The notes below the pieces were generated by a model. The model was not told where the DNA came from. It made no database searches and worked only from the letters and a program-made list of their open reading frames with translations. 64,000 nucleotides of DNA from an uncultured Clostridia bacterium. Its GTDB lineage: Bacteria; Acidobacteriota; Blastocatellia; HR10. The translations under genes were made by a program, and so were the position numbers. The stretch spans positions 107,104 to 171,103 of the forward strand of contig CAZTMT010000005.1 in NCBI GenBank assembly GCA_964615335.1. The letters run 5' to 3'. Within the stretch, counting starts at the first letter, position 1, and every line of letters starts with the position of its first letter. Shown here piece by piece: positions 10,240 through 43,146 of the stretch.

Positions 10240-10314
10240 TGGTAGGCGCGAGCGGATTTGAACCGCTGACCCCTACCGCGTCAAGGTAGTGCTCTCCCCC
10301 TGAGCTACGCGCCT
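10240..10314 (-). tRNA. tRNA-Val (anticodon GAC), CCA encoded
   Basis: Minus-strand sequence AGGCGCG-TA-GCTC-AGGGGGA-GAGC-A-CTACC-TTGACGC-GGTAG-GGGTC-AGCGG-TTCAAAT-CCGCT-CGCGCCT-ACCA folds as a cloverleaf. Acceptor stem is 7/7 paired, the T-loop is TTCAAAT, and the anticodon loop TTGACGC gives GAC. Confidence 0.9.
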
Positions 10315-17526: not shown

Positions 17527-18063
17527 TCAAGGAACTAAACGCGAGAAGACGTAGTCGTTGTCCTTCTGCGAGGCGTGGCAGTCGAAGCAGGCCGATTTCA
17601 CATCAGCGCTCTTAATGAGCGGCTTACGCGTTTGCGGATCGAAGGCCTGAAAGCCCCATCCGCCGGTCTCCGGAAATCGCCGGCTATCTTTGATCATCAG
17701 GGCTTCGACCTTTTTCTTTCCGGCCACATACGCCCCTTGCTCGTTCACGTGCTCGTAGAGGACAAAGACGAGCTGGCTTCCTTCGGGGAAGGGACCTCCT
17801 CTCTCGCTCGCTCGCCGCCCCACAGCGTTCACATAGATGTGGTGAATGCCCCCGAAGGAGCCAAAGAGCGGATGCTTCTCATCGAAGATGACCATGCTCT
17901 TGACATGGGTCCACTGCCGATAATTCGGCAGGGTGAGGCTCTCGACATCCCCTCGGGCGGCCGCCCTCCGAATTTGAGAGGGGGAGAGCGTGCGCGAAGC
18001 CACCAGAACGAGGCTTCCCAAGACGACGATCAGAAAGATCGAAAAGCGTTCTCTTCGCAACAT
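17527..18063 (-). CDS. Cytochrome P460 / cytochrome c'-beta family protein
   Basis: This is the C-terminal 178 aa of track ORF 17527..18882, starting at the ATG at 18063. It has a signal anchor, then [10 protein letters not shown]...GWGFQAFD...[10 protein letters not shown]...DYVF, with a CXXCH near the C-terminus typical of the P460 family. The upstream part of the track ORF is a GC artefact. Confidence 0.75.
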
Positions 18064-18201
18064 CCTCCGAACCTCCCGACAGAGATTTTCACGCCCGCGC
18101 GCGAGCGCGAGCTTTTCGTTAGCGCGCATGTTAAGATAGAGATGAACTGTGCGGTCGTCAATTAGGCACTTTTCGGTAGCTTGCTGACGGGAAGGTGAGA
18201 G

Positions 18202-18813
18202 ATGAAACGAGAGCAGCAGGGACTCGATTGGGCATCTGCCCAAGCGATCTTGCGCTGCAAATGGACGGCTCTTGTTCTGGAGCGGCTGGCCGAAGGGATC
18301 ACGCGTCCTGCCCACTTGCGACGCGCGATCGCCGGGCTCTCGGCGAAGGTGCTGTACGAGCGATTGCGTGAGTTGCAGAAGAGCGGGTTCGTCATGGTCC
18401 AGACCTTCGCCGGGTATCCGAGGCGCACGGAGTATCGTCTGACAAGCTCCGGGTGGCAACTGGCTCGTCTTGTCTCCGTATGTCACCGACAGGGAGTCTC
18501 CGTGCCCGTTCTCGCCGAGGTGTTGAAGTGTCGCTGGCTGCCGGAGATCCTGACGCTTTTGCGGACGGGACCGCATCGTCCGAGTCAGCTTCAGAGACAG
18601 CTTTCGGGAATCAGCACAAAGGTGCTCTCGGAGAAGTTGGAGAAATTGGAGCGCCTGCATCTGATCGTGCGCCAGGTCAGCGCGACCCGCCCCGTGGCCG
18701 TCTGGTATCGGGTGAGCGACGAAGGAGAGCGATTGTGCGCGGTTCTGGCCGGCATGGAGCGCGCACCTGAGCCCAGCGAGTCCCTGGTCGGAGTGATCTC
18801 CCACAGGCTGTGA
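18202..18813 (+). CDS. Transcriptional regulator with two tandem HxlR-type winged-helix domains
   Basis: Two copies of the HxlR signature in one 203-aa chain: LRCKWTALVLERL...LSAKVLYERLRELQKSG and LKCRWLPEILTLL...ISTKVLSEKLEKLERL. Confidence 0.75.
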   Translation: MKREQQGLDWASAQAILRCKWTALVLERLAEGITRPAHLRRAIAGLSAKVLYERLRELQKSGFVMVQTFAGYPRRTEYRLTSSGWQLARLVSVCHRQGVSVPVLAEVLKCRWLPEILTLLRTGPHRPSQLQRQLSGISTKVLSEKLEKLERLHLIVRQVSATRPVAVWYRVSDEGERLCAVLAGMERAPEPSESLVGVISHRL

Positions 18814-18989
18814 ATCCTCCATCGCCCTTCTTGAACCCGGCTGTGCCCTCGTCTTGTTGCTCGCACGGAGATTCTGAGCCATTTGCTCCGCCTATGTGTT
18901 GAGGGTTCGCCCATTGGAAATTGCCATTTGATGTGCTCGTCGAATCCGTGCTATATACCCGCCCTTGACATTTCCACAGGGGAGGCCAT

Positions 18990-21943: not shown

Positions 21944-21972
21944 TTGACATTCCCGAAGACTTTGGATAAAAA
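21944..21972 (+). promoter_or_regulatory. Sigma70-type promoter (TTGACA-N17-TAAAAA) for the 22122 surface-protein gene
   Basis: Perfect -35 TTGACA at 21944-21949. An A/T-rich -10 follows, then a perfect 5' stem-loop GGCCGAGCGTTCGGCC. Confidence 0.4.
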
Positions 21973-22121
21973 TACGGCCGAGCGTTCGGCCTATGGAGAT
22001 TTCGCCGAAAGAGCCAGCGAATTCGGGATCCGGTGAAAACGACAGTGACCATAGCCAGCAGGTGCACGGGTGAGCGAGAGACGATGTCGGGAGAACGTTC
22101 CCGCTTGGCGAGGAGGAAGAC

Positions 22122-25100
22122 GTGGCGCGACGGTTCTGGCTGCTGGTGGGGCTCGCGATCGCTCTTGTGGTGCTGCTTCGATCGGATCGGCTTCTTCGCA
22201 GGGCTTCTGAAATCACGGCACAGGCCTCTGCGATCCCCCGTCTGATCCTTTCAGGAGCCCGCACGACGAGCGCTTTCATCGGGCGGATTGGCCGAAGGGA
22301 GCGTCCTCGCGCGTTCGATGCCCCAGAGGCTGCTTCTTCAGGGGCGTTTCGAACGCAGGTTCTGCCGATTCCGGGTGAGCTTGGCCTCCTTTTTCAACGG
22401 CGGGAGCTGGTCCCCCTTTCGTTCGCCTTCGCCGATTTCGATGAAGATGGGCGTCCGGATGTAGTGGCGGGATTTCGCGGGCCGTGGGGGGGAGTGCTCG
22501 CGCTCTCTTCGGCCGGGGCGCTCTCTCGGACGATCGCTGTTCCGATCGAGCCAGGTGCGCTGTGTGCCGGCGATTTCAACGGCGATGGGCATACCGATGT
22601 CGCTTTGGCCGATGGGCGTTCGGCGCAGGTGCTTCTTCTTCTGGGCGATGGTCGAGGGGGATTCGCTGGCTCGCAAACGCTCGCCGTGCCCTTTGTGCCG
22701 CATGCGCTCGATGCGGCCCCGCGCGTGGGTCCTCCGCTTCGCCCTTCGGCTCAAGGGATTCTCCGCGTGCCGATGGATCTCTTTGCGCTCGGGGAGCGGG
22801 AAGGCCGATGGGAGATCGCGCGCCTGCGCGATCGGACCGTGATGCTTCGCCGATCGCTCCCGGAGTATTCCTCTGGGGAGGAGATCTCGCTTCGGGTGAC
22901 CGATTGGAACGCAGATGCGCGCGCCGATCTGTTGGTCGTCGGAGGCGATCGGGTGCTGATCTTCTCCGATCTCGCGCCCGAAGGACTTGGGATTCCACGG
23001 ATCGTCCGGCTGGATGTCTGGGTTCGTGCGTTTGCCGAGGGGGATTTCGATGGCGATCGGCGCGCGGATCTCGCTCTGCTGGATACGAGCGGTTTTCGTG
23101 TGGATGTGCTCTGGGGGGCGTCCTCACAGGTCACGTCTTTTGCGCTTCCGTGGGAAGCGCAGGCGCTCGTTTCGGCCGATATGGATGGGGATGGAGCATC
23201 GGACCTGGTGCTTGTGGCTGCGGAAGCTGCCAGGCTCGATATCTGGCCCGGAGCTCAGCTTCTTCTGCAGCGAGAAGGCATTCTCTTGGCGGGGAGCCGA
23301 CCGGGTGCGTCGGAGTCATCGGTCGCGCTGGCAGCGGGATGTCATCCCCTTGTGGCGCGCGCCGTATCCCTTCTGGGAGGCGGGCCGGATGTTCTTTTCC
23401 TTCTCAGTCGCGATCGGCCAGGCGTGGAGTGTCCGAGTCCGCTCCACATGGTGATGGCGCAGGCCAACGAACTTCAGGTCACCACGACGGCCGACAGCGG
23501 GCCCGGATCCCTGCGACAGGCGCTTCTGGACGCTAATGCAAGTCCCGGGCCCGATGTGATCCTGTTCCGCATTCCGACTTCGGATCCCGGGTTTGCCGGA
23601 GGGGTATTCACGATCCGCCTGCGCAGTCCGCTGCCGGAGATTCGCGGCGGAGGAGTCACTGTGGACGGCTCTACCCAGATCGCCTTCACGGGGGCGACCA
23701 ACGGAGATCGCCCGGTCATCGTCCTGAGCGGAGAGGAGATCTCGGAAGCCTCGGGCCTCATCCTGGCCAGCGATCGGAATGTCATTCGCCAACTGATCCT
23801 CTCGCGGTTCACCGGAGCGGGGCATGCGGCCATTGTGATTCGCGGAGGAGCAGAGAATGTCGTCGAGGGGTGTTTGATCGGAACGACAGCGACGGGAACC
23901 GGTCTGTCCGGGAATACGGTGGGCGTGCTCGTGACCGAGGGAGCGCGGGATAATCGAATCGGAGGGACGCACGCCGGTGCTCGCAACGTCATTTCCGCCA
24001 ACACGACGGGCATCCTCATTCGCGATACGACGACAACGGGCAATCTCATTGTGGGGAATCTCATCGGGGCGGCGACTGATGGCCGGACGCCTCTGTCCAA
24101 CGTGGATGGCGTGCGCATCGAGAACGGAGCCTCCGGCAATCGCGTGGGGATGCCCGGTGCCGGCAACATCATCGTCGCCAGCGTGGGAAATGGCGTGTGG
24201 ATTCGCGCTCCTGGAAGCGCGGATCGAAATCTCGTTCAGGCCAATCGCATTGGGATCACAGCGGGCGGAGAGCCTTTGGGGAATCGCGTGGATGGCGTTG
24301 CCCTCAGCAGTGGTCAGGAGAACCTCATCGGGGGAACCGAGCCCGGCGAGGGGAACGTGATCGCCTATCAGCGAGGAAATGGGATTCGCGTTCTCGCTCC
24401 TTCGCGGAGGAATCGGATTCTGGGTAATTCCATTTTCGGGAACGAGGGATTGGGGATTGACCTTCGTGGGGACGGACCGACTGAGAATGATCCCGGGGAT
24501 GGAGACAGCGGTCCCAATGATCTGCAGAATTTTCCCGTGATCGAGTCGGCCGTGCAGCGCGGCAACCGGCTCGTCCTGAGCGGACGGCTCGATACGCAGG
24601 CGGGCGACGTCCGCGTGGAGTTCTTCGCCAGCGCCACCTGTCACGCTTCGGGGTTTGGAGAGGGGGAGAGATTTTTGGGCGCGATCACGGTGCGGGCGAC
24701 AGGCCAGGCGCAGAGTCCGGCCTCTTTCGTCGCCGAGTTCTCGGTTCTCGCAGCGCGTCAGGTGATCACGGCCACAGCGACCGATGCTGCGGGCAATACG
24801 TCGGAGTTCTCGCAGTGCGTGCTCGTGAACACCGCGCCGATCGCCGAGGCGGGGCCCGATCAACTTGTGGATGAGGGCGCAGAGGTCGTTCTGGACGGTA
24901 CGGCGAGCCGCGATCCCGATGGAGATCCGATCTCCTTCCGCTGGCGGCAGGTGGCTGGTCCCACTGTCGCTCTCTCGGATGCGACATCGCCGCAACCTCG
25001 GTTCACGGCTCCGATCGTGGATCCTGCTGTGCCGCCTCCGGTTCGCCTCATTTTCGAGCTTGTGGTGAGCGATGGTCGGGCCGAGAGCGATCCGGATCGC

Positions 25101-25691
25101 GTGACGATCACCGTCAATCGGCGGCCGATCGCCAATGCGGGACCGGATCAAACGGTTCCTGACGGCACGCTCGTCACGCTGGATGGAACGCGCAGTTTCG
25201 ATCCCGATGGGGATGGGATCACCTTCCGCTGGACGCAGACGGCCGGGCCGGCGGTCGCGCTCACCGGAGCGACGACCCCGCGTCCGAGCTTCACGGCGCC
25301 GAATCTGGCTGTCACTGATGCCGCGTCGGTTCGCTTGACCTTCTCGCTCGTCGTTCACGATGGGCGCATCGAGAGCGCTCCGGACACGGTGGATGTCATC
25401 GTGCAGAACCTCGTTCGACTGGATGACACTCGTCGTAGCGGCAATCGGCTCGTCCTCAATCTGGCAACCCAGACCTTCGAGTTCCGCGCCGAGCGCGTCG
25501 CTCGGACCTTCACCGGAACGATCACGCGCCTGGTGCGCGGAGGCGGCGAGGGAAGCATGATCGAGGTGGTCGGATCCGGCGCGGAAGGGCTCGCGCTCAC
25601 GGTGCGTATTGACGTGCGTCGGAATGTCGCCGTGGCCGTTCTTCTCACCTCGAGCGAGACGTTCACCTTGTTCACCGGTGATGTGCAATAG
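22122..25691 (+). CDS. Giant surface protein: signal anchor, FG-GAP/VCBS β-propeller repeats, CSLREA-like plus right-handed parallel β-helix region, two PKD-like domains
   Basis: N-terminal FG-GAP motifs (ADFDEDGRPDVV, GDFNGDGHTDV, DMDGDGASDL). GPGSLRQALLDANASPGPDVILF is CSLREA-like. NVI/NRIGG repeats indicate a β-helix. ANAGPDQTV...DPDGDxIxFRW are PKD-like. 1189 aa, GTG start after GAGGAGG. Confidence 0.85.
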   Translation: MARRFWLLVGLAIALVVLLRSDRLLRRASEITAQASAIPRLILSGARTTSAFIGRIGRRERPRAFDAPEAASSGAFRTQVLPIPGELGLLFQRRELVPLSFAFADFDEDGRPDVVAGFRGPWGGVLALSSAGALSRTIAVPIEPGALCAGDFNGDGHTDVALADGRSAQVLLLLGDGRGGFAGSQTLAVPFVPHALDAAPRVGPPLRPSAQGILRVPMDLFALGEREGRWEIARLRDRTVMLRRSLPEYSSGEEISLRVTDWNADARADLLVVGGDRVLIFSDLAPEGLGIPRIVRLDVWVRAFAEGDFDGDRRADLALLDTSGFRVDVLWGASSQVTSFALPWEAQALVSADMDGDGASDLVLVAAEAARLDIWPGAQLLLQREGILLAGSRPGASESSVALAAGCHPLVARAVSLLGGGPDVLFLLSRDRPGVECPSPLHMVMAQANELQVTTTADSGPGSLRQALLDANASPGPDVILFRIPTSDPGFAGGVFTIRLRSPLPEIRGGGVTVDGSTQIAFTGATNGDRPVIVLSGEEISEASGLILASDRNVIRQLILSRFTGAGHAAIVIRGGAENVVEGCLIGTTATGTGLSGNTVGVLVTEGARDNRIGGTHAGARNVISANTTGILIRDTTTTGNLIVGNLIGAATDGRTPLSNVDGVRIENGASGNRVGMPGAGNIIVASVGNGVWIRAPGSADRNLVQANRIGITAGGEPLGNRVDGVALSSGQENLIGGTEPGEGNVIAYQRGNGIRVLAPSRRNRILGNSIFGNEGLGIDLRGDGPTENDPGDGDSGPNDLQNFPVIESAVQRGNRLVLSGRLDTQAGDVRVEFFASATCHASGFGEGERFLGAITVRATGQAQSPASFVAEFSVLAARQVITATATDAAGNTSEFSQCVLVNTAPIAEAGPDQLVDEGAEVVLDGTASRDPDGDPISFRWRQVAGPTVALSDATSPQPRFTAPIVDPAVPPPVRLIFELVVSDGRAESDPDRVTITVNRRPIANAGPDQTVPDGTLVTLDGTRSFDPDGDGITFRWTQTAGPAVALTGATTPRPSFTAPNLAVTDAASVRLTFSLVVHDGRIESAPDTVDVIVQNLVRLDDTRRSGNRLVLNLATQTFEFRAERVARTFTGTITRLVRGGGEGSMIEVVGSGAEGLALTVRIDVRRNVAVAVLLTSSETFTLFTGDVQ

Positions 25692-25808
25692 TCCAGTTCA
25701 CCTGGGATCGCCTCTCTCATGCGATCTTCGGCATCGCGGGGAAGAGATCCGGTTCTTTCTCTCACGAGCCAGGGCGATCGGTCGTGCGGTTTCTTCGAGG
25801 AGGGGGAA

Positions 25809-28508
25809 ATGAGGGCTCGATCTCCGGCCAGAGCGCTTGTTCAAGGGCTGCTCCTGATCGTGCTGGGGGGATGGGGAGGGCGCGGGATCGCGCAAGAGCG
25901 TCGCTCCGTTGAACCGGCCAACCAAACGGCGTCCACGACGACCGGGGGAACCAGCACCGGTCTCTTCCTGACCTGGAGCGGGCGCACGCTGCGCCGGGGG
26001 GAGTATACGCTGGGCCTCTTTTGGAATAATTTCGATCGGGATCCCGGCGATTTGGATATCAATCAAGCCTCGATCGCCTTCACGCTCGGCCTGACCAATC
26101 GGCTGGAGCTTTTTCTGGCGGCGAATGTTCTGCAGCAGGTGACTTCGCGTCAGCCTTTCGCCCTCTCCGGATATCAGTTTCATGGCCTGCGCAGCGCCTT
26201 CGGGGGCGATCCGTTTGTCGCCTTCGGATCGCCGGTGGGAGGGCGTGAGGGGGCAGCGGCGTTCTTCCCGTTGAGCGGAGCGCGCCTGGGGGGGATTTTG
26301 CCTCCGCCGGGCAGTTTCTTCGGACCCGCGATTTTGGCCGATCGGCCGAGTTTCTTCAACGAATGGCCCTTTTTCGGTCCGGCGGCCTTCCTCTCGCGCG
26401 AGCAGGGATTTGATCTGCAGCGCTCGGCCAACGGCATGGGGGATGTCACCCTGGGCCTGAAAGCGGCGCTGGCGGATCCGGCCGGCTCGTTCCCCCTGGC
26501 TCTGGCGGCTGTGCTGCGGTTGCCTTCGGCTCGGCACCTGGAAGCGTTAGCTCGCGGGAGGAGTTCGGGAGCTACAGATTTCGGCGTGATTGCGATCTCC
26601 GGCCAGAATGCCTGGGGCCACCGCCTGCGCCTGGTGCAAAACATCGGATATATTCGTTCGGGCGATCCGAAACTCAGCGGGGTGAAAATCCTCGATCGGC
26701 GCGATCAACTGCTGCTCAACGCGGGCGTTGAGATCGCGCCAGCCCAATGGCTTGTGCTTGTGGCCGAATGGGCGAATACGATCTATGTCTCTTCGGGGAC
26801 GCCCAACCTGAACGCGGTGAATCCTTCCGACCTGCTTCTTGGGGCGCGCCTGTATGCTTACGAAGGGCGCGTGCAGGTCGGAGGAGGGTGGCGACGCTTC
26901 CTCACCCAATCGGATCGGCGTGCGATCCCCGTCTTTCAGCCCGGCCGGGGTGTGTCCTCTCTGGACATCAGCTCGCGTGAGGCCAACGGCTTCGTCTTCA
27001 ACTTCGCTCTGGCGCGTCGAGCCTCTCTTCTTCCTCCTCCTGTGCCCAATCGCGCGCCGAGCGTCACGCTCTTTGCCGATCGCACAGAGGTGCGCGATGG
27101 GGAGCGCGTGATGCTCGAAGCGCGCGCCTTCGATCCGGATAACGATCTGTTGACCTACGCGTGGACGATTGAGCCTCCGGTCCCTCGCGAAGCTCTTCAG
27201 GCTGTCGGGGTGCCGCCGGGAGCGCCGCCGGGGAACCGTCTGCTGCTCGATACGACAGGATGGAATCCGACGCCGGGGGCTCCGGCTCGCACTTTCACCG
27301 TGACGGTTCAGGTCGAGGATGGGCGAGGGGGGATCGCTTCGGATCGGCGCGTGATCACGGTAGCCTCGCCGCCTCCTTCGCCCCCGCCGCCTCCTCCTCC
27401 GCCTCCCCCGCCGCCGGCGAATCGTCCTCCGGTGATTCGCGAGATCGAGATCGCGCCCGTCGGGGCTCCGCAAGTTCCCGGGCAGATCACCGATGGGGAT
27501 CTGCTGCGTCTGCGAGCCATTGCGGAAGATCCCGATGGAGATGTGCTTGTGTATCGCTGGAGCGCGACAGCCGGGCGCTGGGTCGGCGTCGGAAGTGAGA
27601 TCACCTTTGATACAGCGGGCATCACAGCCGGTCCCGGACAGCCGCCGGTCGCCGTGACGATCACGGTGACCGTGGATGATGGCCGAGGTGGTGTGGAGAG
27701 AGCTTCGCGTACGATCACAGTCGTCGCCGTGAAGCGTCCGGAACCAATCCCGCAGCCGGCGCTCTTCTTCGCTCGCCCGAACGCAGCGCGCATCACCAAC
27801 GCGCATAAGGCGATCCTCGATGATGTCGCCGATAAGCTGCGGCAGGACCCGCGCGCGACGCTCATCATAGATGGGCATCAGGATCGGGCCGAGCGGGCAA
27901 ATGTCGCCCGCGCACGCGCACAAAACGCGGCCGATTATTTGATTCGGCAACGCAGGATCGAACGGAGGCGTATTCGCGTGCGGAGCTTCGGAGCCCAACG
28001 TCCTCATCCCAGTGGACAGCGGCGGCGAAATCGGCGCGTGGAGCTGTGGATCCTCCCGGTCGGAGCGGAGGCGCCTCCGGAAGGGCAAGCGACTCCGCAG
28101 GCATTTCGTTTAGAACGGCATCCCGTGAGCGCCGTGGCGAGGGCCGGACAATCTGCCGGAGAGAGCACGCGGGCCTCCGCTTCCCCGGAAGACCAGAGGC
28201 CGATTTCGGCGCCAGCCGATCCGCGACGCCGTCCCTTGCGCGTGGGATCTTCGAGAGAGACACAGGTTGTGTCTCAGGCGGCCGGAACGTCGGCGCTCGT
28301 CGCTTCTGCGGCTTCGCGTCGTTTTGCTTCGGCTGTGCCGCAGGCGCGGAACGCCTCTGAATCTCGTCCGGCCCGTCGCGGACGAAAGCTAGCAGCTTCT
28401 GCACGTCAGGCGCTGGGCGTCCGATCCTCTTCGGTTCGCGCTGCCCTGAAGGGAAAGCCTTCGCGCGTCGGGCGGATCTCCTCTCAACTGGCCCGCCGCA
28501 TGGAGTGA
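25809..28508 (+). CDS. Surface/outer-membrane protein: β-barrel-like N-terminal region, two PKD-like domains with a poly-Pro linker, OmpA/MotB C-terminal peptidoglycan-binding domain, basic low-complexity tail
   Basis: Signal peptide with GAGGAGGGGGAA RBS. Amphipathic β-strand-rich N-terminal ~400 aa. DPDNDLLTYAW and DPDGDVLVYRW are PKD-like. A P12 stretch is present. The OmpA-C motif is IDGHQDRAERANVARARAQNAADYL...VELWI. Confidence 0.8.
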   Translation: MRARSPARALVQGLLLIVLGGWGGRGIAQERRSVEPANQTASTTTGGTSTGLFLTWSGRTLRRGEYTLGLFWNNFDRDPGDLDINQASIAFTLGLTNRLELFLAANVLQQVTSRQPFALSGYQFHGLRSAFGGDPFVAFGSPVGGREGAAAFFPLSGARLGGILPPPGSFFGPAILADRPSFFNEWPFFGPAAFLSREQGFDLQRSANGMGDVTLGLKAALADPAGSFPLALAAVLRLPSARHLEALARGRSSGATDFGVIAISGQNAWGHRLRLVQNIGYIRSGDPKLSGVKILDRRDQLLLNAGVEIAPAQWLVLVAEWANTIYVSSGTPNLNAVNPSDLLLGARLYAYEGRVQVGGGWRRFLTQSDRRAIPVFQPGRGVSSLDISSREANGFVFNFALARRASLLPPPVPNRAPSVTLFADRTEVRDGERVMLEARAFDPDNDLLTYAWTIEPPVPREALQAVGVPPGAPPGNRLLLDTTGWNPTPGAPARTFTVTVQVEDGRGGIASDRRVITVASPPPSPPPPPPPPPPPPANRPPVIREIEIAPVGAPQVPGQITDGDLLRLRAIAEDPDGDVLVYRWSATAGRWVGVGSEITFDTAGITAGPGQPPVAVTITVTVDDGRGGVERASRTITVVAVKRPEPIPQPALFFARPNAARITNAHKAILDDVADKLRQDPRATLIIDGHQDRAERANVARARAQNAADYLIRQRRIERRRIRVRSFGAQRPHPSGQRRRNRRVELWILPVGAEAPPEGQATPQAFRLERHPVSAVARAGQSAGESTRASASPEDQRPISAPADPRRRPLRVGSSRETQVVSQAAGTSALVASAASRRFASAVPQARNASESRPARRGRKLAASARQALGVRSSSVRAALKGKPSRVGRISSQLARRME

Positions 28509-28682
28509 GCACGGCGCTTCGAGGCGCGAAAGCTCTTCCGGGCTTCAACTCTGCTCTGTCGGCGTGTCGCCGCGCGCTCCGTGGGCATTACGCGTGATGT
28601 CCCCATCAGGCGGATACCGCGAGCGCGGGTCTTGACCTTGACACGTGCTATAGGGTTTATCATGGGGAGCCGGGAGGGAGAG

Positions 28683-29144
28683 ATGCCGGGCCGACACTTC
28701 TTCATCGGCGAGCTGGCCAGGGCCGTCGGGGTGAACCCGCAAACGGTTCGCTATTACGAACGCGCGGGGTTACTGCCGCGCGCGGCGCGGACGCCGTCCG
28801 GGTATCGCCTCTACGATGAGGAGGCCGTTGCGCGGCTCCGATTCATCAAGGCCGCTCAGTCCCTTGGCCTGTCGCTGCGAGAGATCCGTGAGATCATCGC
28901 GCTCAGTCGTGCGGGCCGATCTCCCTGCGCGCGCGTGCGCGCTCTGCTTCACCAGAAGGTGCGGGAGCTGGATCACAAGATCGCGCAGTTGCGCGCCTTC
29001 CGCCGAGAGCTGGCCGCGCGCCTCACACAGTTGGAGCATATGCCCGATGATGCGGATTCCTCGCCCTATGTCTGCTCGCTCATCATGGCCGTTGCCCGGC
29101 ATCGCTCATCCAGAAATCCCCATGAAAGGAGGGAAAGCGTATGA
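28683..29144 (+). CDS. MerR-family transcriptional regulator (metal/redox sensor type)
   Basis: MPGRHFFIGELARAVGVNPQTVRYYERAGLL is the canonical MerR helix-turn-helix N-terminus. Coiled-coil dimerisation helix with Cys in SPCARV, plus a C-terminal Cys (YVCSL). GGGAGGG RBS. Confidence 0.85.
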   Translation: MPGRHFFIGELARAVGVNPQTVRYYERAGLLPRAARTPSGYRLYDEEAVARLRFIKAAQSLGLSLREIREIIALSRAGRSPCARVRALLHQKVRELDHKIAQLRAFRRELAARLTQLEHMPDDADSSPYVCSLIMAVARHRSSRNPHERRESV

Positions 29145-29311
29145 AGCGCACACGCCGATGGGTGCTTGTTTCTCTGCTCGGAGCTGCCGTGGGGATCGGG
29201 ATGCTCTCGGCATTGTGGGCATCCTCAGGTGATCCCACGAGCTGTCCGGGACGCATCGTCTGTCCGCTCACGGGGAAGGTCATCTGCCGAGACGCCTGCC
29301 CGCTCAGGTGA
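29141..29311 (+). CDS. Small secreted 4-Cys peptide (56 aa), translationally coupled to the MerR gene
   Basis: ATG at 29141 overlaps the MerR TGA stop (ATGA). AAAGGAGGG sits 8 nt upstream. Sequence is MKRTRRWVLVSLLGAAVGIGMLSALWASS|GDPTSCPGRIVCPLTGKVICRDACPLR, with a Sec-type signal peptide and a mature part bearing C-x5-C-x7-C-x3-C with three CP dipeptides. Not in the ORF track because it is shorter than 60 aa. Confidence 0.55.
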   Translation: MKRTRRWVLVSLLGAAVGIGMLSALWASSGDPTSCPGRIVCPLTGKVICRDACPLR

Positions 29312-29744
29312 GCGGCGCACTCGGGGGCACTCCGGCGAGCCTTCGGCGTGCGGAGAGCCCCCGCTCGGTTTGTCATCCACCGAACCGGATGAAGCGTCGC
29401 GTCCTGAGGCATTGTGGGCGTGGCGTCGGTTTGTAAGAGGCGCGAGAGCCCCCTCACCGGTGATGCCGCACCGGTGAAGACGTGACGTGCGCGTTACTCC
29501 GGTTTCCTCACCTCTGGCGGCCCATCCCCACTATGTCCTCGCCGAGCCTTTTCGCCGACTGCCACGACCGGAAGGGACCTAATCGAGTTCAAACAACCTT
29601 AAAATCGTCCTAGACAAACCGTCATCCCATCGCTTACTAGTGACGGGCGGGCGCAGATCAGGAAGAAGCACGAGGGGTTGGGGATGCGCCCAGTTGCCGG
29701 TTTGGGGTGGTGTTTGATCTTCCCTGAGAAAGGAGACCAAGAGC

Positions 29745-32399
29745 ATGTTATCCGGGAGACGGATCATCGGACTTCTCATGGCAGTCGTGATGGCGGGAGG
29801 AATTCCTTCCCGGGCGAGTTCCCAGGAGCGCCTCGATGAGATCATTCGCAGTGGCTTCATCTACCGCAATCTCGGGCCGTTTCGCGCAGGCGCGTGGATT
29901 TCGGATATCGCCGTGCCGGAGACGCCGTTGAAGTCGCACTTGTATACCTTCTACGTGGCCGCGCGACATGGCGGCGTCTGGAAGACGACCAACAACGGGA
30001 CGACGTTCGAACTCGTCTTTGACCACCATTTCTCGATCGGGGCGATCGCCATTGCTCCGTCGAACGAGAACATCGTATGGGTCGGTACGGGTGAAGCGTC
30101 CAATGCCCGAAGTTCCTACGCAGGGGATGGCGTGTACAAATCCCACGACGGCGGGAAGACCTGGCAGAACATGGGTCTGCGGGACTCCTATCACATCGCG
30201 CGCATCGTGATTCATCCGACCAATCCCGACATCGTTTATGTCGCTGCGGTGGGCCACTTGTTCACGACCAATGAAGAACGCGGCGTGTTCAAGACGACCG
30301 ATGGCGGCAAGACGTGGACGAGAGTTCTCTACGTCAACGACCGGACGGGAGCCATTGACCTCGTCATGAGCCGGCGCGATCCCCAGGTGCTCTACGCGGC
30401 GATGTACGAGCGGCGGCGCCTTCCCTGGGGATTCGAGGACGGAGGGCCGGGAAGCGGCATCTACAAGACCACCGATGGCGGAACGAGTTGGAAGAAGCTC
30501 GAGGGGGGATTGCCCAGCGGAACCATCGGGCGCATCGGATTGGACCTCTATCAGAAGAATCCCCGTATCGTCTACGCAGTCATTGACAACCGCAATCCTC
30601 GCGCCAGAATCGAGGGCGAACAGGAGATGACCGCGCCGGTCATCGGGGGCGAGGTTTATCGCAGCGATGATGGTGGAGCGACCTGGCGGAAGATGAATTC
30701 GGAGCGCGACGATGTGAGCCGCAAATCGGGATATGCTTTCAATCAGATCCGGATTCGTCCCGATAATCCCGACCGGATTTATGTCACGGGCGCCTCTCTG
30801 ATCAGTTCCTCCGATGGGGGGAAGACATGGGTAGGGCTGAGCGGCGGGCCGCAGGAGGATCGTCCCTTCCGACGCGCCTTCGGAGATTTTCGCACGCTCT
30901 GGATTGATCCGCAGAATCCCGATCGAATGATCGCGGGCACCGATGGGGGTGTCTACATCTCTTACGACGGCGGCAAGACGTGCGATCACTACTGGAACAT
31001 CCCGCTGGGTGAAGTCTACGCGCTGACGGTGGACATGGAAGAGCCGTACAACATCTACGCTGGGCTTCAAGATCACGAGTCGTGGAAGGGACCGAGCAAC
31101 GGCTGGTCCGGCAGCGTCGGGCTGGCCGATTGGGTGACGGTGGGAACTGGCGACGGCATGTACAATCAGGTGGATCCGACCGATAGCCGCTGGGTTTACA
31201 ACACGCAACAGTTCGGAGGTCATGCCCGGTTCGATCAAAAGACGCGCGTGCGGAAGATCATCGCGCCGACGCGCCCGCCGGGCCAGCCCCCCCTGCGGTT
31301 CAATTGGGTCGCTCCGCTTCGGCTCTCGCCGCATAATCCGCAGATCCTCTACGCGGGCGCTCAGGTGCTCCTGCGCTCACTGGATCGCGGAGAGCACTGG
31401 CAGGAGATCAGTCCCGATTTGACGACCAACGATCCGCGCAAGATCAGTCCGCCGGGCGCTCCCATTCAACATTGTACGATCACGACGATCTCGGAATCCC
31501 CGGTCACGCCGGGCGTCATCTGGGTGGGCACCGATGATGGCCGAGTTCAGGTGACGCGCGACGGCGGCGCGACGTGGACCGATGTGACGCCGGCCCTGGC
31601 GAAAGCGGGAGGTCCCGAAGACGCCTGGGTGACGCGCGTCTTCGCCTCGCACTTCGAGGCCGGAACGGCTTATGTGGCCAAGTCGCGGCGCTACCAGGAC
31701 GATTTCCGCCCCTTTCTCTACAAGACGACCGATTACGGCGCGACGTGGACGTCCATCGCCGGCGATCTGCCGATGCGCTCGATCAACGTCATCTTCGAAG
31801 ATTACAAGAATCCCGATCTGCTCTTTGTCGGCAACGACTGGGGCGTCTACGTCTCGCTGGATGGGGGGAAACATTGGGCGGTGCTGCGAGGCAATATGCC
31901 TCCGGTTCCGGTGCACGATCTGGTGATTCATCCGCGCGATGGCGATGTGGTCGTGGGCACCTACGGGCGTGGCCTCTGGGTGACCGACATCGCGCCGCTC
32001 CGCGAGGTGAGTCCTCAGATCCTCGACCGCGAGGTCTATTTCTTCGCCATTCGTCCCAGAGCCCGAAGACCAGAAGGCGCTTTGGGAAATTACCGGCTTT
32101 TCGGAGATCGTTTGATCGTGACGCCGAACGAGCCCAATGGGCTCACGTTCACATACTATGTGAAGGAGGCCCGAGAAAGGGTCACGCTCACGATCACCGA
32201 TCTCTCGGGCGCTCCGGTGCGCACTCTGGAGGGGACGGCTAAGGCTGGGATCAATCGCGTCGTCTGGAGCTTCCAGCCGACGGGCTCGCCGGGACGTTCC
32301 CGCGGCTCAACCCAGCGCGAGGTCGAACCGGGAGAGTACGTGGTGACGCTCCGAGTCGGCGAGAAGGAGTACACGCAGAGAGCGCGCGTTCTGCCGTGA
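29745..32399 (+). CDS. BNR/Asp-box repeat (sortilin/VPS10-like, GH74-like) secreted protein
   Basis: Signal peptide. At least 9 S/TxDxGxTW repeats (SHDGGKTW, TTDGGKTW, TTDGGTSW, SDDGGATW, SSDGGKTW, TRDGGATW, TTDYGATW...). 884 aa. Confidence 0.85.
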   Translation: MLSGRRIIGLLMAVVMAGGIPSRASSQERLDEIIRSGFIYRNLGPFRAGAWISDIAVPETPLKSHLYTFYVAARHGGVWKTTNNGTTFELVFDHHFSIGAIAIAPSNENIVWVGTGEASNARSSYAGDGVYKSHDGGKTWQNMGLRDSYHIARIVIHPTNPDIVYVAAVGHLFTTNEERGVFKTTDGGKTWTRVLYVNDRTGAIDLVMSRRDPQVLYAAMYERRRLPWGFEDGGPGSGIYKTTDGGTSWKKLEGGLPSGTIGRIGLDLYQKNPRIVYAVIDNRNPRARIEGEQEMTAPVIGGEVYRSDDGGATWRKMNSERDDVSRKSGYAFNQIRIRPDNPDRIYVTGASLISSSDGGKTWVGLSGGPQEDRPFRRAFGDFRTLWIDPQNPDRMIAGTDGGVYISYDGGKTCDHYWNIPLGEVYALTVDMEEPYNIYAGLQDHESWKGPSNGWSGSVGLADWVTVGTGDGMYNQVDPTDSRWVYNTQQFGGHARFDQKTRVRKIIAPTRPPGQPPLRFNWVAPLRLSPHNPQILYAGAQVLLRSLDRGEHWQEISPDLTTNDPRKISPPGAPIQHCTITTISESPVTPGVIWVGTDDGRVQVTRDGGATWTDVTPALAKAGGPEDAWVTRVFASHFEAGTAYVAKSRRYQDDFRPFLYKTTDYGATWTSIAGDLPMRSINVIFEDYKNPDLLFVGNDWGVYVSLDGGKHWAVLRGNMPPVPVHDLVIHPRDGDVVVGTYGRGLWVTDIAPLREVSPQILDREVYFFAIRPRARRPEGALGNYRLFGDRLIVTPNEPNGLTFTYYVKEARERVTLTITDLSGAPVRTLEGTAKAGINRVVWSFQPTGSPGRSRGSTQREVEPGEYVVTLRVGEKEYTQRARVLP

Positions 32400-32553
32400 C
32401 GAAGTCGAAGGACAGATGCGGCGGGGGATCCTTCAGGAGGAACTCATCAGCTCGGCATCGGTCGCAACCAGGACCACGCGGATCATCGTCTTGGATGTTG
32501 GATGAATGGGAGGCTGGGTCTTTCGGTCAGGAAACCACAGAAGGAGTTTCAAT

Positions 32554-34950
32554 ATGTCACGCGCACATGTCGTACGGTGGAGCTTTGGGATGACGGTGGC
32601 GATCCTGGTGATCGCCGGCATCGCCGGAGCACAACACGTCCCGAGTGTTATTTCTCCGGCTGTCCCTGAGCTGGCTCGTCCGTTGCCTCTCTCGGCCGTT
32701 CGGCTAACGGGGGGACCGCTCAAACGGGCGCAGGACTTGACGGCCGATTACCTGCTCAAGCTCGAACCGGACCGCATGTTGGCGTTCTACCGCCAGCGGG
32801 CCGGGTTGGAACCGAAAGCGCCCCCTTACGGGGGATGGGATGGCGACGGTCGAAACCTGACAGGGCATATCGCCGGTCACTACCTGTCTGCCGTGAGCTT
32901 GATGTATGCGGCCACGGGCGATGTGCGCTTCAAGGAGCGCGCCGATTACATCGTCCGCGAGCTGAAAGAGGTGCAGGATAAGCACGGGGACGGTTACCTG
33001 GGCGCGCAAGCGAATGCCAAAGAGCAGTTCCTTGAGATCTCCAAAGGCAACATTCGTTCGACGAGCTTCGATCTGAACGGACTGTGGGCTCCCTGGTACG
33101 TGATGCACAAGATCTTCGCGGGATTGCGCGATGCGTACCGCTATACGGGGAATCGCACGGCGCTGGAGGTGGCGATCCGGCTCGCCACCTGGGTCGAACG
33201 GATCCTCTCCCCATTGGACGATGCGCAACTGCAGAAGATGCTCAACACGGAGTTCGGCGGCATGCCCGAAGTGCTGGCCGATCTCTACGCGGATACGGGC
33301 GACGCGCGCTGGCTCGCCCTCTCGCATCGCTTCGATCATCGCGCCGTGCTGGAGCCGCTCTCGCGCGGGCAGAACATTCTGCCGGGCTTGCACGGCAACA
33401 CGCAGGTCCCGAAACTGCATGGCTCGCTCGTGCGCTACGCCTATACGGGAAACAAAGCCGACGGCGATGCCGCGCGCTTCTTCTGGGAGATCGTCGTCCG
33501 AGATCACAGCTTCGCCACCGGCGGCCACGGTAAGGATGAATACTTCGGTCCTCCGCGCGAGCTGAGCAATCGCATTGACGGGCGCACGGCGGAGAGCTGC
33601 AACGTCTACAACATGCTCAAGATGACGCGCAAACTCTTTGCGCTTCAGCCCGAGAGCAAATACGCGGAGTTTCACGAGCGCGCGCTTTTCACTCACGTTC
33701 TGGCCTCGATAGATCCCGAAGATGGGCGGATGTGTTACATGGTTCCTGTCGGTCGGGGCGTGCAGCGCGAATACCAGAACATGCTGGGCAGCTTCACCTG
33801 CTGTGTCGGCACGGGCATGGAGAATCACGCCCTGCACGGCGATGGGCTCTATTACGAATCGGGCGACACGCTATGGGTCAACCTCTATGCGCCTTCCACG
33901 GCCCGATGGGAAGCCATGGGGGTGGACCTGACCGTGGAGACCGACTTCCCCCAGGGGGATGTGGTGACTGTGCGGCTTGCGCTCCGGGAGCCCAAAGAAT
34001 TCACGCTGGCGTTGCGCCGTCCGTCCTGGGCGGGCGTGGGGTTCAGCGTCCGGGTCAACGGTCGGTCCGTCCGATCGCTTCCGGTGCCGGGTTCCTATAT
34101 CCGGTTGAGGCGCCAGTGGAGAAACGGGGACACAGTGGTCCTGAGGATGCCGAAGACGCTGCGCCTGGAGCCGCTTCCGGATAATCCCCGCGTGGTCGCG
34201 ATCTTGTGGGGTCCACTGGTTCTGGCTGGCGATCTCGGACCGGAACCTTCTCGCGGAGGGCGCGGCGCGCGCTCCTCTGTCGAGCCCCCCGACATCCCCG
34301 TGCTTGTAGCGGCAGGTCGCCCTCCGGCGGAGTGGATCAAGCCAGTGCCCGGCAAGCCGGGCCACTTTCGGACTCAAGGCGTCGGGCGCCCACGCGATGT
34401 GGACCTGGTGCCCTTTTACCGCCTGCACCGGCGCACGTACTCGGTCTATTTCGATCTGCTGACGCCAGAAGAATGGGCGAGGAAGGTCGCCGAGTTGCAG
34501 GCTCAGCGCGAGCGCCAACACCAACTGGAAGCCGCGACGATCGTCTTTCTGCAGCCCGGGGACACCTCCATCGAACGCGAGTTCAATCCGCAGGGCGAAG
34601 AGACCACTCCGATACGACGAGCTGGTCGTCTGGGCCGGAGCGCCCGACGGTGGTTCTCCTTCGATCTGCCGGTTGATCCGGATCGGCCGGTGAAGCTCAT
34701 CGTGACGTATCATGGGGAGGAGCGGGCCACCCGAACCTTCGAGATCCTCGTGGAGGGCGTGCGCGTTGGCCAGCAGCGGATCGAGCGGCATCAACCCGGC
34801 AGCCCCTCGAAGAGCTTTTTCGATGTCGAATACGCGATCCCGGCGGAGCTGACTCGGGGGAAGCAGCGGGTGACGGTGCGGTTCCAGGCCACAGGCGAGA
34901 GCGAGACCGCCGGCGTCTTCGGCATTCGCCTGGTTCGCCTCACTCCTTGA
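32554..34950 (+). CDS. Glycoside hydrolase family 127 (β-L-arabinofuranosidase-like, DUF1680) protein
   Basis: Signal peptide. Conserved GH127 regions (GHYLSAVSLMYAATGD, ESCNVYNMLKMT, CCVGTGMENH with the catalytic and zinc-binding Cys). ATG at 32554 follows AAGGAG. Confidence 0.85.
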   Translation: MSRAHVVRWSFGMTVAILVIAGIAGAQHVPSVISPAVPELARPLPLSAVRLTGGPLKRAQDLTADYLLKLEPDRMLAFYRQRAGLEPKAPPYGGWDGDGRNLTGHIAGHYLSAVSLMYAATGDVRFKERADYIVRELKEVQDKHGDGYLGAQANAKEQFLEISKGNIRSTSFDLNGLWAPWYVMHKIFAGLRDAYRYTGNRTALEVAIRLATWVERILSPLDDAQLQKMLNTEFGGMPEVLADLYADTGDARWLALSHRFDHRAVLEPLSRGQNILPGLHGNTQVPKLHGSLVRYAYTGNKADGDAARFFWEIVVRDHSFATGGHGKDEYFGPPRELSNRIDGRTAESCNVYNMLKMTRKLFALQPESKYAEFHERALFTHVLASIDPEDGRMCYMVPVGRGVQREYQNMLGSFTCCVGTGMENHALHGDGLYYESGDTLWVNLYAPSTARWEAMGVDLTVETDFPQGDVVTVRLALREPKEFTLALRRPSWAGVGFSVRVNGRSVRSLPVPGSYIRLRRQWRNGDTVVLRMPKTLRLEPLPDNPRVVAILWGPLVLAGDLGPEPSRGGRGARSSVEPPDIPVLVAAGRPPAEWIKPVPGKPGHFRTQGVGRPRDVDLVPFYRLHRRTYSVYFDLLTPEEWARKVAELQAQRERQHQLEAATIVFLQPGDTSIEREFNPQGEETTPIRRAGRLGRSARRWFSFDLPVDPDRPVKLIVTYHGEERATRTFEILVEGVRVGQQRIERHQPGSPSKSFFDVEYAIPAELTRGKQRVTVRFQATGESETAGVFGIRLVRLTP

Positions 34951-35059
34951 GGGCGGGGAATATCCCCGGGGGAGCACCGAGCCTTCGCTCATCATGTCGT
35001 TTGGCCGAAGCTTCCCCCGACGGATATTCCCTCGGTGTTTTGGAGACGGGCCGACGTCG

Positions 35060-36706: not shown

Positions 36707-36875
36707 CGTTTCTCCTCCTGGCAAAGAGTCACCGTTTTTCATCTCTGCTGAGACCGTTCGGATATGGGTTCCGAAGGCTGTCAGGCGCCGCCCATTCTAC
36801 CACAGAGCGCCTCGTGGGGCGATCGCACCCACGCACCTCCGAAGACCATCGCAGATCGAGCCGTGATCCTCCGCT

Positions 36876-40700: not shown

Positions 40701-40911
40701 CGTTTTCTCCTCCTTTCTTTCCGATCTTTCCGACCCCGCCACACTTCGGCCACAGTGTACAGGCGGTCTCCACCCGTTGTCTTGAACAATCCAAGTCCTT
40801 TTGGAACAGACTTAATGTCTTCTGAAACCAGCTCGCGAGTGCCCGGGTCGCGTCCGAACGGAAGGCCCAAGGGGAACGAACCCCTGTGCCGAAAGTTTTT
40901 ATATATTTTCG

Positions 40912-40941
40912 TTGACAAAGTCGCCTAACTTCGGCTATCCT
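40912..40941 (+). promoter_or_regulatory. Sigma70-type promoter (TTGACA-N18-TATCCT) for the reductase operon, giving a ~290-nt leader
   Basis: Lies in an AT-rich island (gaaagtttttatatattttcgTTGACAaag...) within otherwise GC-rich DNA. Confidence 0.5.
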
Positions 40942-40979
40942 CATACCGCTCGAGCGCACGGGATGGGAGGACTCAGACG

Positions 40980-41126
40980 ATGGCCTACGAAGGACGAAGC
41001 GACAGGCGGGCGGCGCTCGACAGAACGAACGCGCGTCGCCTGAAGAGCATCGCGGTCCTCTTCGTGCGAGGACCGTGGACATCCGAGCAGGGGAGCGCCC
41101 TGGCCGACGACGTCTGTTGTCGCTGA
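40980..41126 (+). CDS. Upstream ORF (48 aa) ending ...DDVCCR*, in the leader of the first reductase gene
   Basis: ATG at 40980 lies 9 nt after GGGAGG. Two consecutive Cys codons (TGT TGT) precede Arg-stop. Duplicated TTCCCCCCGA motifs follow at about 41150 and 41191. Confidence 0.35.
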   Translation: MAYEGRSDRRAALDRTNARRLKSIAVLFVRGPWTSEQGSALADDVCCR

Positions 41127-41234
41127 GTCTGCTGACGCCTTCCGACGATTCCCCCCGAATTGGGATTTGCTCTCAGGGAACCTTCCTTCCCCCCGAGGGG
41201 AGCGGAGGCGAATGATCATTTCTCGGGAGAGGGC

Positions 41235-42941: not shown

Positions 42942-42942
42942 G

Positions 42943-43062
42943 ATGATTCCGACACTGTTCATCGAAGGGATCGCCGAAGGCCTCGTGCCCGAGGGAGCGA
43001 TCTGTTCGTGTATGTGTGCCAGCAGGCCGAGAGCGGGCCCTCCGCAGCGCTCTCCCGGATGA
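42943..43062 (+). CDS. Candidate leader peptide (39 aa) with C-S-C-M-C codon cluster
   Basis: ATG lies 2 nt after the paralog-1 stop and is preceded by GGAGGGG. Sequence is MIPTLFIEGIAEGLVPEGAICSCMCASRPRAGPPQRSPG*, with three Cys codons in five (43003-43017). It is followed by alternative hairpins and a terminator. Confidence 0.4.
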   Translation: MIPTLFIEGIAEGLVPEGAICSCMCASRPRAGPPQRSPG

Positions 43063-43087
43063 GCGCGGTGGACGGCAGAAGAAAGCG

Positions 43088-43124: not shown

Positions 43125-43146
43125 ATTCCGGATGGGAGGGGAAGCC

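Follow-up and report, generated by a model that had tools for sequence, protein, structure and literature searches.

Two adjacent genes of an uncultured Blastocatellia bacterium: a predicted OmpA-type outer-membrane tether with a long modular arm and an exported β-helix protein

Two large open reading frames (ORFs), ORF1 and ORF2, lie in tandem on the forward strand of a 64,000-nucleotide stretch of DNA (GenBank assembly GCA_964615335.1, contig CAZTMT010000005.1, positions 107,104 to 171,103), which was analyzed at its full length and is hereafter called the window. The host, an uncultured hot-spring member of the Acidobacteriota, was identified as belonging to Blastocatellia, near the uncultured order HR10/GAL08; HR10 and the hot-spring group GAL08 have been placed in one order of that class (PMC8787282). 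The G+C content of the window is 61-64%, and no compositional anomaly was observed at the locus of the two genes. The predicted product of ORF1 is an exported multidomain protein, and that of ORF2 has the parts of an OmpA-type outer-membrane protein (Table 1). Both were found on the plus strand at the coordinates given in a preliminary description of the stretch, which had been made from the DNA letters alone, and the 117-bp gap between them and the length of ORF2 agree with that description.

Because orthologs at 63-83% identity were found in at least seven other assemblies, ORF1 and ORF2 are real genes and not chance ORFs. ORF1 begins with a GTG codon five bases past a GAGGAGG ribosome-binding site, and the same start was called for P0038, the identical database protein, which comes from another assembly. 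An exact-sequence database look-up of ORF2 returned no record. Its ATG at 25809 is preceded by GAGGGGG; this ribosome-binding site and start codon are kept in an 80%-identical relative, in which a large gap interrupts the upstream stretch. A separate gene call likewise placed the start at 25809. The start at 25719 given in a mechanical list of ORFs was rejected as too early, since the 30 upstream codons are not conserved. An apparent overlap of ORF1 with an upstream minus-strand ORF encoding an ACT domain was likewise rejected, since the ACT gene encodes 131 amino acids in relatives; with that call, the intergenic region 5' of ORF1 is 247 bp long. A promoter-like site in this region, TTGACA-18-AAAAAT, was the sole sigma-70-like match between 21.4 and 29.3 kb, where 0.7 matches are expected by chance, and is thus weak evidence. 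No terminator-like site was predicted between ORF1 and ORF2, and co-transcription of the two genes is plausible. When the window was scanned for tandem repeats, the polyproline-coding stretch of ORF2 was the sole match.

The AlphaFold2 structure predicted for ORF2 had a mean predicted local distance difference test (pLDDT) score of 77.8. The hydrophobic core of its signal peptide and the A-Q junction are kept in homologs. Twelve long strands were predicted between residues 66 and 403, with pLDDT mostly 85-95, joined on one side of the barrel by short turns of 2-9 residues (95-98, 221-229, 269-272, 313-314 and 351-354) and on the opposite side by the long connections. From the even number of strands and this pattern of turns and loops it follows that both ends of the modeled barrel, its N and C termini alike, would lie in the periplasm. 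The loop between strands 3 and 4, designated L2, is 100 amino acids long (residues 114-212), contains helices and carries GGILP and PF motifs that are invariant in the family. A segment ahead of strand 1, TxGGxxTGLFxTxSxRTLxxGE, is also conserved; pLDDT fell below 50 for residues 45-51.

In Foldseek comparisons the barrel matched chains of the amyloid secretion channel FapF (5o68, TMt 0.62-0.71) and the COG4313 channel Pput2725 (4rl8, TMt 0.63-0.66, E 1e-6 to 5e-6). The conserved segment before the barrel and loop L2 suggest, by analogy with Pput2725, that the lumen is occluded, and the barrel may double as a narrow channel. At the level of sequence, the first 410 residues gave no Pfam match. 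Neither PF13557 nor PF01389, the family of the 8-stranded OmpA membrane barrel, matched ORF2 at E ≤1, and a barrel-only profile found no match among PDB sequences. PF13557 was matched by two of 38 family members (best E 1.7e-7), and a tandem copy in a relative scored 21.5 bits against a cut-off of 22.

The barrel is followed by two PKD/immunoglobulin (Ig)-like domains on either side of a proline hinge. Big_9 (E 4.7e-8, 34.3 bits against a cut-off of 23.6) and PKD-like matches were located at residues 414-520 and 550-638; PKD_4 matched the first domain below its cut-off (E 1.7e-4), the Big_9 match fell in the second, and the PKD-like domains of ORF2 scored 22.3 bits for PF22352 (K319L-like_PKD), below its cut-off of 27. 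The two sandwiches, both modeled with confidence, span residues 418-519 and 542-639. The run of 12 prolines in the hinge was confirmed, and runs of 12-15 prolines occur in orthologs and of 8 in paralogs. The domain beyond is predicted to bind peptidoglycan. It was recognized by PF00691 at residues 657-734 (43 bits against a cut-off of 27.2, E 6.2e-11) and matched PDB entry 3td3 in sequence (E 1.6e-5). With Foldseek it matched Acinetobacter baumannii OmpA (3td3-3td5, TMt 0.73-0.77, 27% identity) and also Pseudomonas aeruginosa OprF; taken together with the OmpA structures, TMt was about 0.75 and identity 24-27%. When aligned to 3td3, the Asp of GHQD and the Arg of ARAR in ORF2 correspond to those of GHTD and LAR in A. 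baumannii OmpA, which we take to be the diaminopimelate-binding residues D271 and R286.

Past the OmpA-like domain ORF2 continues into a basic, disordered tail that is rich in Ala, Arg and Ser (27 K/R against 9 D/E) and contains two conserved islands, RRRPLRV and a C-terminal LARR(L/M)(E/R). The possibility that the tail is a read-through artefact was rejected, because the frame stays open over a comparable length in the orthologs at L009, L010 and L011, with in-frame insertions and deletions and with both islands; codon-position G+C content was uninformative. The tail is absent from homologs of about 720 amino acids, and the Arg-rich tails of other subfamilies bear a different motif. The preliminary description had listed the domains of ORF2 correctly, except that it placed the OmpA-like domain at the C terminus and missed the 144 residues beyond it. 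The β-barrel and OmpA-like folds that it proposed were both predicted here, and anchoring to peptidoglycan through the OmpA-like domain, which it had deduced, remains a sound interpretation. Its label of surface protein did not hold for ORF2, in which an even-stranded barrel and an arm reaching for peptidoglycan would put the PKD domains in the periplasm. The domain order that it called atypical (barrel, PKD, OmpA-C) is so only in part: a barrel followed by a spacer and an OmpA-like domain is ordinary OmpA logic, while the type of barrel and the Ig-like spacers are indeed unusual.

Table 1 Features of the ORF1-ORF2 locus and of related loci. Coordinates are window positions unless a locus is named. 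AF2, AlphaFold2; aa, amino acids.
Feature	Coordinates	Strand	Basis or remark
Promoter-like site TTGACA-18-AAAAAT	21944..21973	+	in 247-bp gap upstream of ORF1
ORF1, exported multidomain protein, 1189 aa	22122..25691	+	100% identical to P0038
ORF1 signal peptide or anchor, aa 1-20	22122..22181	+	hydrophobic stretch FWLLVGLAIALVVLL; then disordered linker to ~aa 72
ORF1 FG-GAP β-propeller, aa 76-446	22347..23459	+	~7 blades, 5 DxDxDG-type loops
ORF1 right-handed β-helix, aa 449-800	23466..24521	+	CSLREA-like N-cap GSLRQAL, aa 462-468
ORF1 Ig-like cap, aa 806-900	24537..24821	+	NDLQNFPV...TATATDxxGNTSEFS, Cys840/Cys899
ORF1 two K319L-like PKD domains, aa 903-1099	24828..25418	+	Pfam PF22352, two stretches
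ORF1 C-terminal β-sandwich, ~85 aa	25434..25688	+	AF2, seven strands aa 1109-1185, moderate pLDDT
ORF2, OmpA-type outer-membrane protein (predicted), 899 aa + stop codon	25809..28508	+	gene model, Pfam, AF2
ORF2 Sec signal peptide (predicted), aa 1-28	25809..25892	+	predicted cleavage GIA/QE, from sequence
ORF2 N-terminal segment and 12-stranded β-barrel (predicted), aa 43-405	25935..27023	+	AF2, Foldseek
ORF2 PKD/Ig-like domain 1, aa 414-520	27048..27368	+	AF2 β-sandwich, pLDDT 85-95
ORF2 proline hinge, SPPPSP + P12 + ANRPP	27369..27431	+	pLDDT <50
ORF2 PKD/Ig-like domain 2, aa 542-640	27432..27728	+	AF2, pLDDT 86-94
ORF2 OmpA-like peptidoglycan-binding domain (predicted), aa 647-750	27747..28058	+	PF00691, Foldseek
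ORF2 basic disordered tail, aa 756-899 (144 aa)	28074..28505	+	pLDDT 25-43
Tandem ORF2-family pairs	L018:10004-12937; L020:12972-16139		
52%-identical paralog with operon resembling type II secretion or type IV pilus genes	L001:10001-22175		

A search with the barrel region recovered homologs with the full ORF2 architecture at 43-57% identity, about 720 amino acids long and ending after the OmpA-like domain; the few that carried a source label came from Blastocatellia, Pyrinomonadaceae or Acidobacteriota. With one genome scanned per species, the family comprised 56 loci, mostly in metagenome-assembled genomes of Blastocatellia and Chloracidobacterium with few other labels, and a HMMER search over 1.84 billion cluster representatives gave 222 matches at E ≤1e-3. 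Judged by these searches, the family is small and limited to one lineage. In practically every complete member (30-83% identity) the barrel is joined through a 200-250 amino acid Ig-like spacer to the OmpA-like domain. Family members occur as tandem pairs in other Blastocatellia (L018, L020, L022, L025, L027, L029, L030, L035, L057 and L063). The first copies end in RRPxRRxxRRPEP, and the second copies, of 974-1056 amino acids, carry a C-terminal AMIN domain after an Arg-rich linker (PF11741, E 3.6e-12 and 6.5e-13). Because the barrel is always coupled to one or two wall-binding modules, the family was interpreted as a tether of the outer membrane to peptidoglycan. Among the neighbors, the commonest were a gene resembling that for glutamate dehydrogenase, at 33 loci, and downstream a TsaE-like gene, both named by reading of the sequences, and such housekeeping neighbors would suit a constitutive structural protein.

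The genomes HR10 and JZ-3 hold a 52%-identical paralog of ORF2 elsewhere, lacking an ORF1 neighbor, and the 03V1 metagenome-assembled genome holds fragments of it. In a neighbor-joining tree the ORF2 clade grouped with P0002 and L007, and its sister was the group containing this paralog. At L001, L002, L004, L013, L014, L015 and L019 the paralog lies between an MqnA/D-like gene and a co-oriented operon resembling those of type II secretion systems (T2SS) or type IV pili (T4P), which encodes T2SSM-like, T2SSF, MshEN-T2SSE ATPase, secretin and pseudopilin proteins. The genomes of L013 and L015 carry the ORF1-ORF2 pair besides the operon-linked paralog.

An ORF1 homolog was found directly upstream of an ORF2 homolog at seven loci: L006, L009 (Bacterium HR10), L010, L011, L066, L067 and L068. 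Identity at L006 and L009-L011 was 74-83% for ORF2 and 75-78% for the ORF1 β-helix. The ACT gene lay upstream of the pair in every locus that reached that far, and genes for NusB and cytochrome P460 lay farther upstream at L066-L068. Orthologs of ORF1 and the ORF2 clade co-occur only at this one orthologous locus, with conserved flanks, in the HR10/GAL08 clade, and none of the roughly 50 other ORF2-family loci had an ORF1-like neighbor. Since the seven loci amount to one orthologous locus whose flanks were kept, they reflect shared ancestry and are not independent evidence of coupling. The preliminary description would have been refuted had the pair never been syntenic elsewhere; synteny was found at seven loci, but within a single clade and from a single inherited event, which is no proof of coupling. 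ORF1 and ORF2 adjoin through descent within one clade, and no evidence requires an interaction between them.

The preliminary description had also taken the PKD domains of both genes to be of one subtype (DPDGDxLxYxW) and had read this as a sign of co-evolution or interaction. The PKD domains of ORF1 were only 33-38% identical to those of ORF2, compared with 60% between the two PKD domains of ORF1 and 49-59% between the PKD domains of ORF2 and their counterparts in P0004, a paralog lacking an ORF1 neighbor. The PKD region of ORF1 also matched the PKD-repeat region of models for unrelated sortase-dependent M36 peptidases (E 8e-52), so the DPDGDxLxYxW motif is generic to this class of Ig domain. 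With such low identity between the genes, nothing points to exchange or co-evolution, and that suggestion was not borne out.

The AlphaFold2 structure predicted for ORF1 had a mean pLDDT of 78 and a predicted template modeling score of 0.73. The preliminary description had listed its domains correctly (an FG-GAP propeller, a CSLREA-like motif, a β-helix and two PKD domains). The N terminus was modeled as a helix at residues 2-34, with low pLDDT for residues 22-72. The N-terminal hydrophobic cores of the orthologs are 11-13 residues long, like those of Sec signal peptides and below the length of a membrane anchor, so ORF1 would be exported across the inner membrane; from its sequence, it is predicted to be a Sec-exported protein. 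The propeller was recognized by FG-GAP_3 (E 9e-17) and FG-GAP (E 3e-11), the scores of 61.9 bits for PF13517 and 43.3 bits for PF01839 both exceeding their cut-offs. It was modeled with pLDDT mostly 84-97 and matched 7-bladed propellers in Foldseek, including BBS1 and the integrin alpha-V headpiece.

The β-helix of ORF1 was modeled with pLDDT mostly above 90. The Pfam models Beta_helix (22.7 against a cut-off of 25.9) and NosD matched it below their cut-offs, the CSLREA-like motif lacks the Cys, and a scan of ORF1 against NCBIfam found no CSLREA-named model at E ≤0.1. The Ig-like cap, with strands modeled at high pLDDT over residues 806-887, is conserved among 47 β-helix proteins. Helix and cap together matched PDB entry 8wm1 chain A in Foldseek (TMt 0.70, 20% identity). 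Searched alone, the β-helix region of ORF1 found no match among PDB sequences; only a profile built from the 47 related proteins reached the sequence of 8wm1 (E 1.1e-30). The match had two stretches, of which one takes in the GSLRxA N-cap and the helix and the other the C-terminal cap, which ends in TSE(F/L)S. This entry, the only solved relative of the module, was deposited as a 3-dehydroshikimate dehydratase, and a literature search for 8wm1 or a β-helix dehydroshikimate dehydratase found no paper. The deposition hints that CSLREA-type β-helix and Ig-cap modules can be enzymes, and the propeller and β-helix of ORF1 suggest ligand binding or lyase-type chemistry. Among the proteins of Acinetobacter that depend on type II secretion, a "CSLREA domain-containing protein" has been listed (bioRxiv 10.1101/2022.02.01.478765); this is a lead to an export route and not evidence for ORF1.

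PF22352 matched the PKD region of ORF1 in two copies (E 2.9e-27, 94.9 bits), and the region also matched KIAA0319L (PDB 6nz0, E 1e-6); these domains were poorly modeled by AlphaFold2, and the alignment is messy there. All seven orthologs (63-68% identity) have three PKD repeats and ORF1 has two. The junction at window positions 25119-25124, near residue 1000, marks an exact in-frame loss of one 96-residue repeat, as expected of recombination between repeats. The C-terminal β-sandwich is 67-74% identical in orthologs and had no Pfam or NCBIfam match. A homolog search with this domain for a sorting tag shared with other proteins returned nothing, not even the orthologs, and was thus uninformative. 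Outside its orthologs only single domains of ORF1 recur in other proteins, and the domain families to which ORF1 adds a new member are common ones. It shares with the CSLREA-type 8wm1, over residues 449-900, the GSLRxA N-cap, the right-handed β-helix and the Ig cap ending in TSE(F/L)S, and differs in that its module sits between an FG-GAP propeller and PKD repeats.

In a survey of outer-membrane tethers, OmpA was defined operationally as PF00691 combined with a β-barrel (bioRxiv 10.1101/2021.05.31.446380). ORF2 fits this definition, with PF00691 above the gathering score and a barrel known from predicted structure only. It has the same order of parts as the OmpA/OprF tethers (OmpA of Escherichia coli and A. 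baumannii, OprF of P. aeruginosa), namely signal peptide, outer-membrane barrel, Pro-rich hinge and OmpA-like domain, and it shares the Asp/Arg pair with A. baumannii OmpA. In contrast to classical OmpA, the barrel is predicted to be 12-stranded and COG4313/FapF-like and not the 8-stranded PF01389 barrel, the hinge is longer by about 230 amino acids through the two Ig/PKD domains and P12, and the basic tail is an extra part. ORF2 thus appears to follow OmpA logic while using Ig spacers, a basic tail and a 12-stranded barrel that is non-homologous. Pput2725 shares the 12-stranded fold predicted for ORF2 and a conserved segment before strand 1, whereas ORF2 has no sequence-level match to COG4313 or Phenol_MetA_deg channels, contains the conserved 100-residue loop and is fused to a periplasmic wall-binding arm; Pput2725 stands alone and has a mass of about 30 kDa (PMC4493636). 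Among solved folds, the barrel matched FapF (5o65, 5o67 and 5o68) best, at an identity of 7-10%, but ORF2 lacks its N-terminal coiled coil, having only about 35 residues before the barrel, and has no fap operon context. OmpA-like domains are joined to other modules through spacers in PorE of the type IX secretion system and in OmpA proteins with thrombospondin type 3 spacers, as in ORF2, and the PorE model matched the OmpA-like region of ORF2 weakly (E 0.059). We know of no PorE-like or thrombospondin-spacer OmpA anchor that has a COG4313-like barrel and PKD spacers.

Based upon the gene models, domain content, predicted folds, family distribution and limits of synteny observed here, we favor with moderate confidence the explanation that ORF2, assembled from unusual parts, ties the outer membrane to peptidoglycan as an OmpA-type tether, and that ORF1 is a separate protein which adjoins it by descent. 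ORF2 would be exported by Sec and cleaved after GIA28, and its 12-stranded COG4313/FapF-like barrel would insert into the outer membrane with both ends periplasmic. An arm consisting of an Ig/PKD domain, the P12 polyproline hinge and a second Ig/PKD domain would hang from the last barrel strand and span the periplasm. Its length, estimated from the typical dimensions of Ig domains and polyproline II, would be about 10 nm, and it would fill the role of the short Pro-rich hinge in E. coli OmpA. The OmpA-like domain would then bind peptidoglycan non-covalently through the conserved Asp/Arg pair, and the Arg-rich tail would possibly contact anionic components of the wall or membrane. ORF1 would be a separate Sec-exported protein made up of propeller, β-helix, Ig cap, PKD domains and β-sandwich.

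Several points weigh against this explanation. The kinship of the ORF2 barrel with COG4313 channels and FapF consists of a predicted fold and marginal Pfam matches in a few members, and the search of the barrel profile against PDB sequences had no match. The solved folds nearest to it are both channels, one for hydrophobic compounds and one for amyloid secretion, and anchoring may thus not be the only function of the barrel. The topology of ORF2, its binding to peptidoglycan, the role of its spacer and co-transcription with ORF1 are inferences. Finally, the pair is kept at seven of seven clade loci, on the same strand, with a gap of 64-117 bp and no predicted terminator, and the ORF2 clade has its own distinctive tail; a functional link between ORF1 and ORF2 may therefore exist.

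These last observations also speak for a dedicated two-gene module of ORF1 and ORF2, in which ORF2 exports ORF1 through a FapF-like barrel or anchors it to the envelope, and in which docking could occur through Ig/PKD contacts, the Arg-rich tail or the C-terminal β-sandwich of ORF1. The closest outgroups, P0003/L007 and the 52% paralogs, have neither an ORF1 neighbor nor the clade-specific tail, the solved fold that the barrel matches best belongs to a channel for polypeptide secretion, and ORF1 terminates in a conserved β-sandwich. We nevertheless consider such a module unlikely. The adjacency represents a single evolutionary event at one orthologous locus with conserved flanks, some 50 other family loci are without an ORF1-like neighbor, and the PKD domains of the two genes are no more alike than generic PKD domains. 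ORF2 has neither the periplasmic coiled coil of FapF nor Fap-type neighbors, and it is unlikely that a folded protein of 120 kDa could travel through a barrel of 12 strands whose internal loop is conserved. The search with the C-terminal domain of ORF1, which found no other protein, would count against the module as well, though it also missed the orthologs and is uninformative.

It is similarly doubtful that ORF2 is chiefly a COG4313 (MetA-pathway) uptake channel for hydrophobic or aromatic compounds whose OmpA-like domain serves only to fix its position. The Foldseek match to Pput2725 (TMt 0.63-0.66) is consistent with this, as are the PF13557 matches in two of 38 members (best E 1.7e-7), the tandem copy at 21.5 against 22 bits, and the conserved segment before strand 1, which was aligned to Pput2725, where the N terminus occludes the lumen (PMC4493636). 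However, ORF2 itself had no match to PF13557 at E ≤1, no aromatic-catabolism genes lie nearby and the neighbors are housekeeping genes, and the wall-binding arm is invariably fused, with OmpA and AMIN domains together in some copies, which argues for a mechanical role. An uptake function is, moreover, compatible with a tether. More speculative, and held to be improbable, is recruitment of ORF2 in the HR10 clade as an outer-membrane partner of ORF1, giving an undescribed two-gene module for display or export in which the barrel, with its Ig-OmpA arm and Arg-rich tail, may hold or pass ORF1. Very improbable is a role of the ORF2 family in anchoring a T2SS or T4P machine to peptidoglycan as an accessory: the 52% paralog does lie 143 bp upstream of a co-oriented T2SS-like operon in seven related assemblies, and T2SS genes occur within 10 kb in two more subclades (L062 and L046/L049), but no secretin, ATPase or pseudopilin genes are present in the 64-kb window, most family loci have no such genes within 10 kb, L012, L016 and L026 retain the upstream Mqn gene and not the T2SS operon, and the argument concerns at best the 52% paralog and not ORF2.

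Other features of the window were noted. Downstream of ORF2, about 14.6 kb (28509-43131) separate it from a sulfite-reductase (NIR_SIR) gene, which in related genomes follows the ORF2 ortholog after about 300-370 bp, indicating an insertion in the window or a deletion in the relatives. The interval holds genes for a MerR regulator, a BNR/sortilin protein, a GH127 beta-L-arabinofuranosidase, two uncharacterized proteins of 585 and 780 amino acids, and a 1288-residue protein with CarboxypepD_reg and an OMP_b-brl_4 barrel. A promoter-like stretch, cTTGACCTTGACAcgtgctatagggtTTATCAT (28625-28685, read by eye), lies directly 5' of the MerR-family gene (ATG at 28683) and is reminiscent of the long-spacer promoters on which MerR regulators act. 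Upstream of ORF1, a 451-residue minus-strand ORF at 17527-18882 has a C-terminal cytochrome P460 domain; the gene is called at 174-179 amino acids in relatives, and the mechanical list has probably extended this ORF too far. A DMRL-synthase gene (155 amino acids) adjoins it. The sole Rfam match in the window is a minus-strand tRNA gene (10243-10314), which adjoins a threonyl-tRNA synthetase gene.

To our knowledge, little is known about how the outer membrane is tethered to the cell wall outside Proteobacteria. If the favored explanation is correct, the OmpA-type tether of Blastocatellia is made with a different barrel and has a far longer, modular arm, consisting of two Ig domains and a polyproline rod, to which some copies in the family add a second wall-binding domain, AMIN. 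ORF1 is a further example of the widespread and functionally obscure CSLREA-type β-helix module, the one solved relative of which is annotated as an enzyme. These findings refine current concepts rather than change them; the long-arm tether and its AMIN-bearing relatives are of mild interest for the envelope architecture of Acidobacteriota, and unsurprising. In a milder but still speculative reading than that of a recruited partner for ORF1, the ORF2 family would be the main long-arm tether of Blastocatellia and would set the distance between outer membrane and cell wall. Should arm length determine how far the outer membrane lies from peptidoglycan, the control of periplasm width could naturally be tested on this family, which would also provide a marker gene of envelope architecture for a class of soil and hot-spring bacteria that is widespread and poorly cultured.

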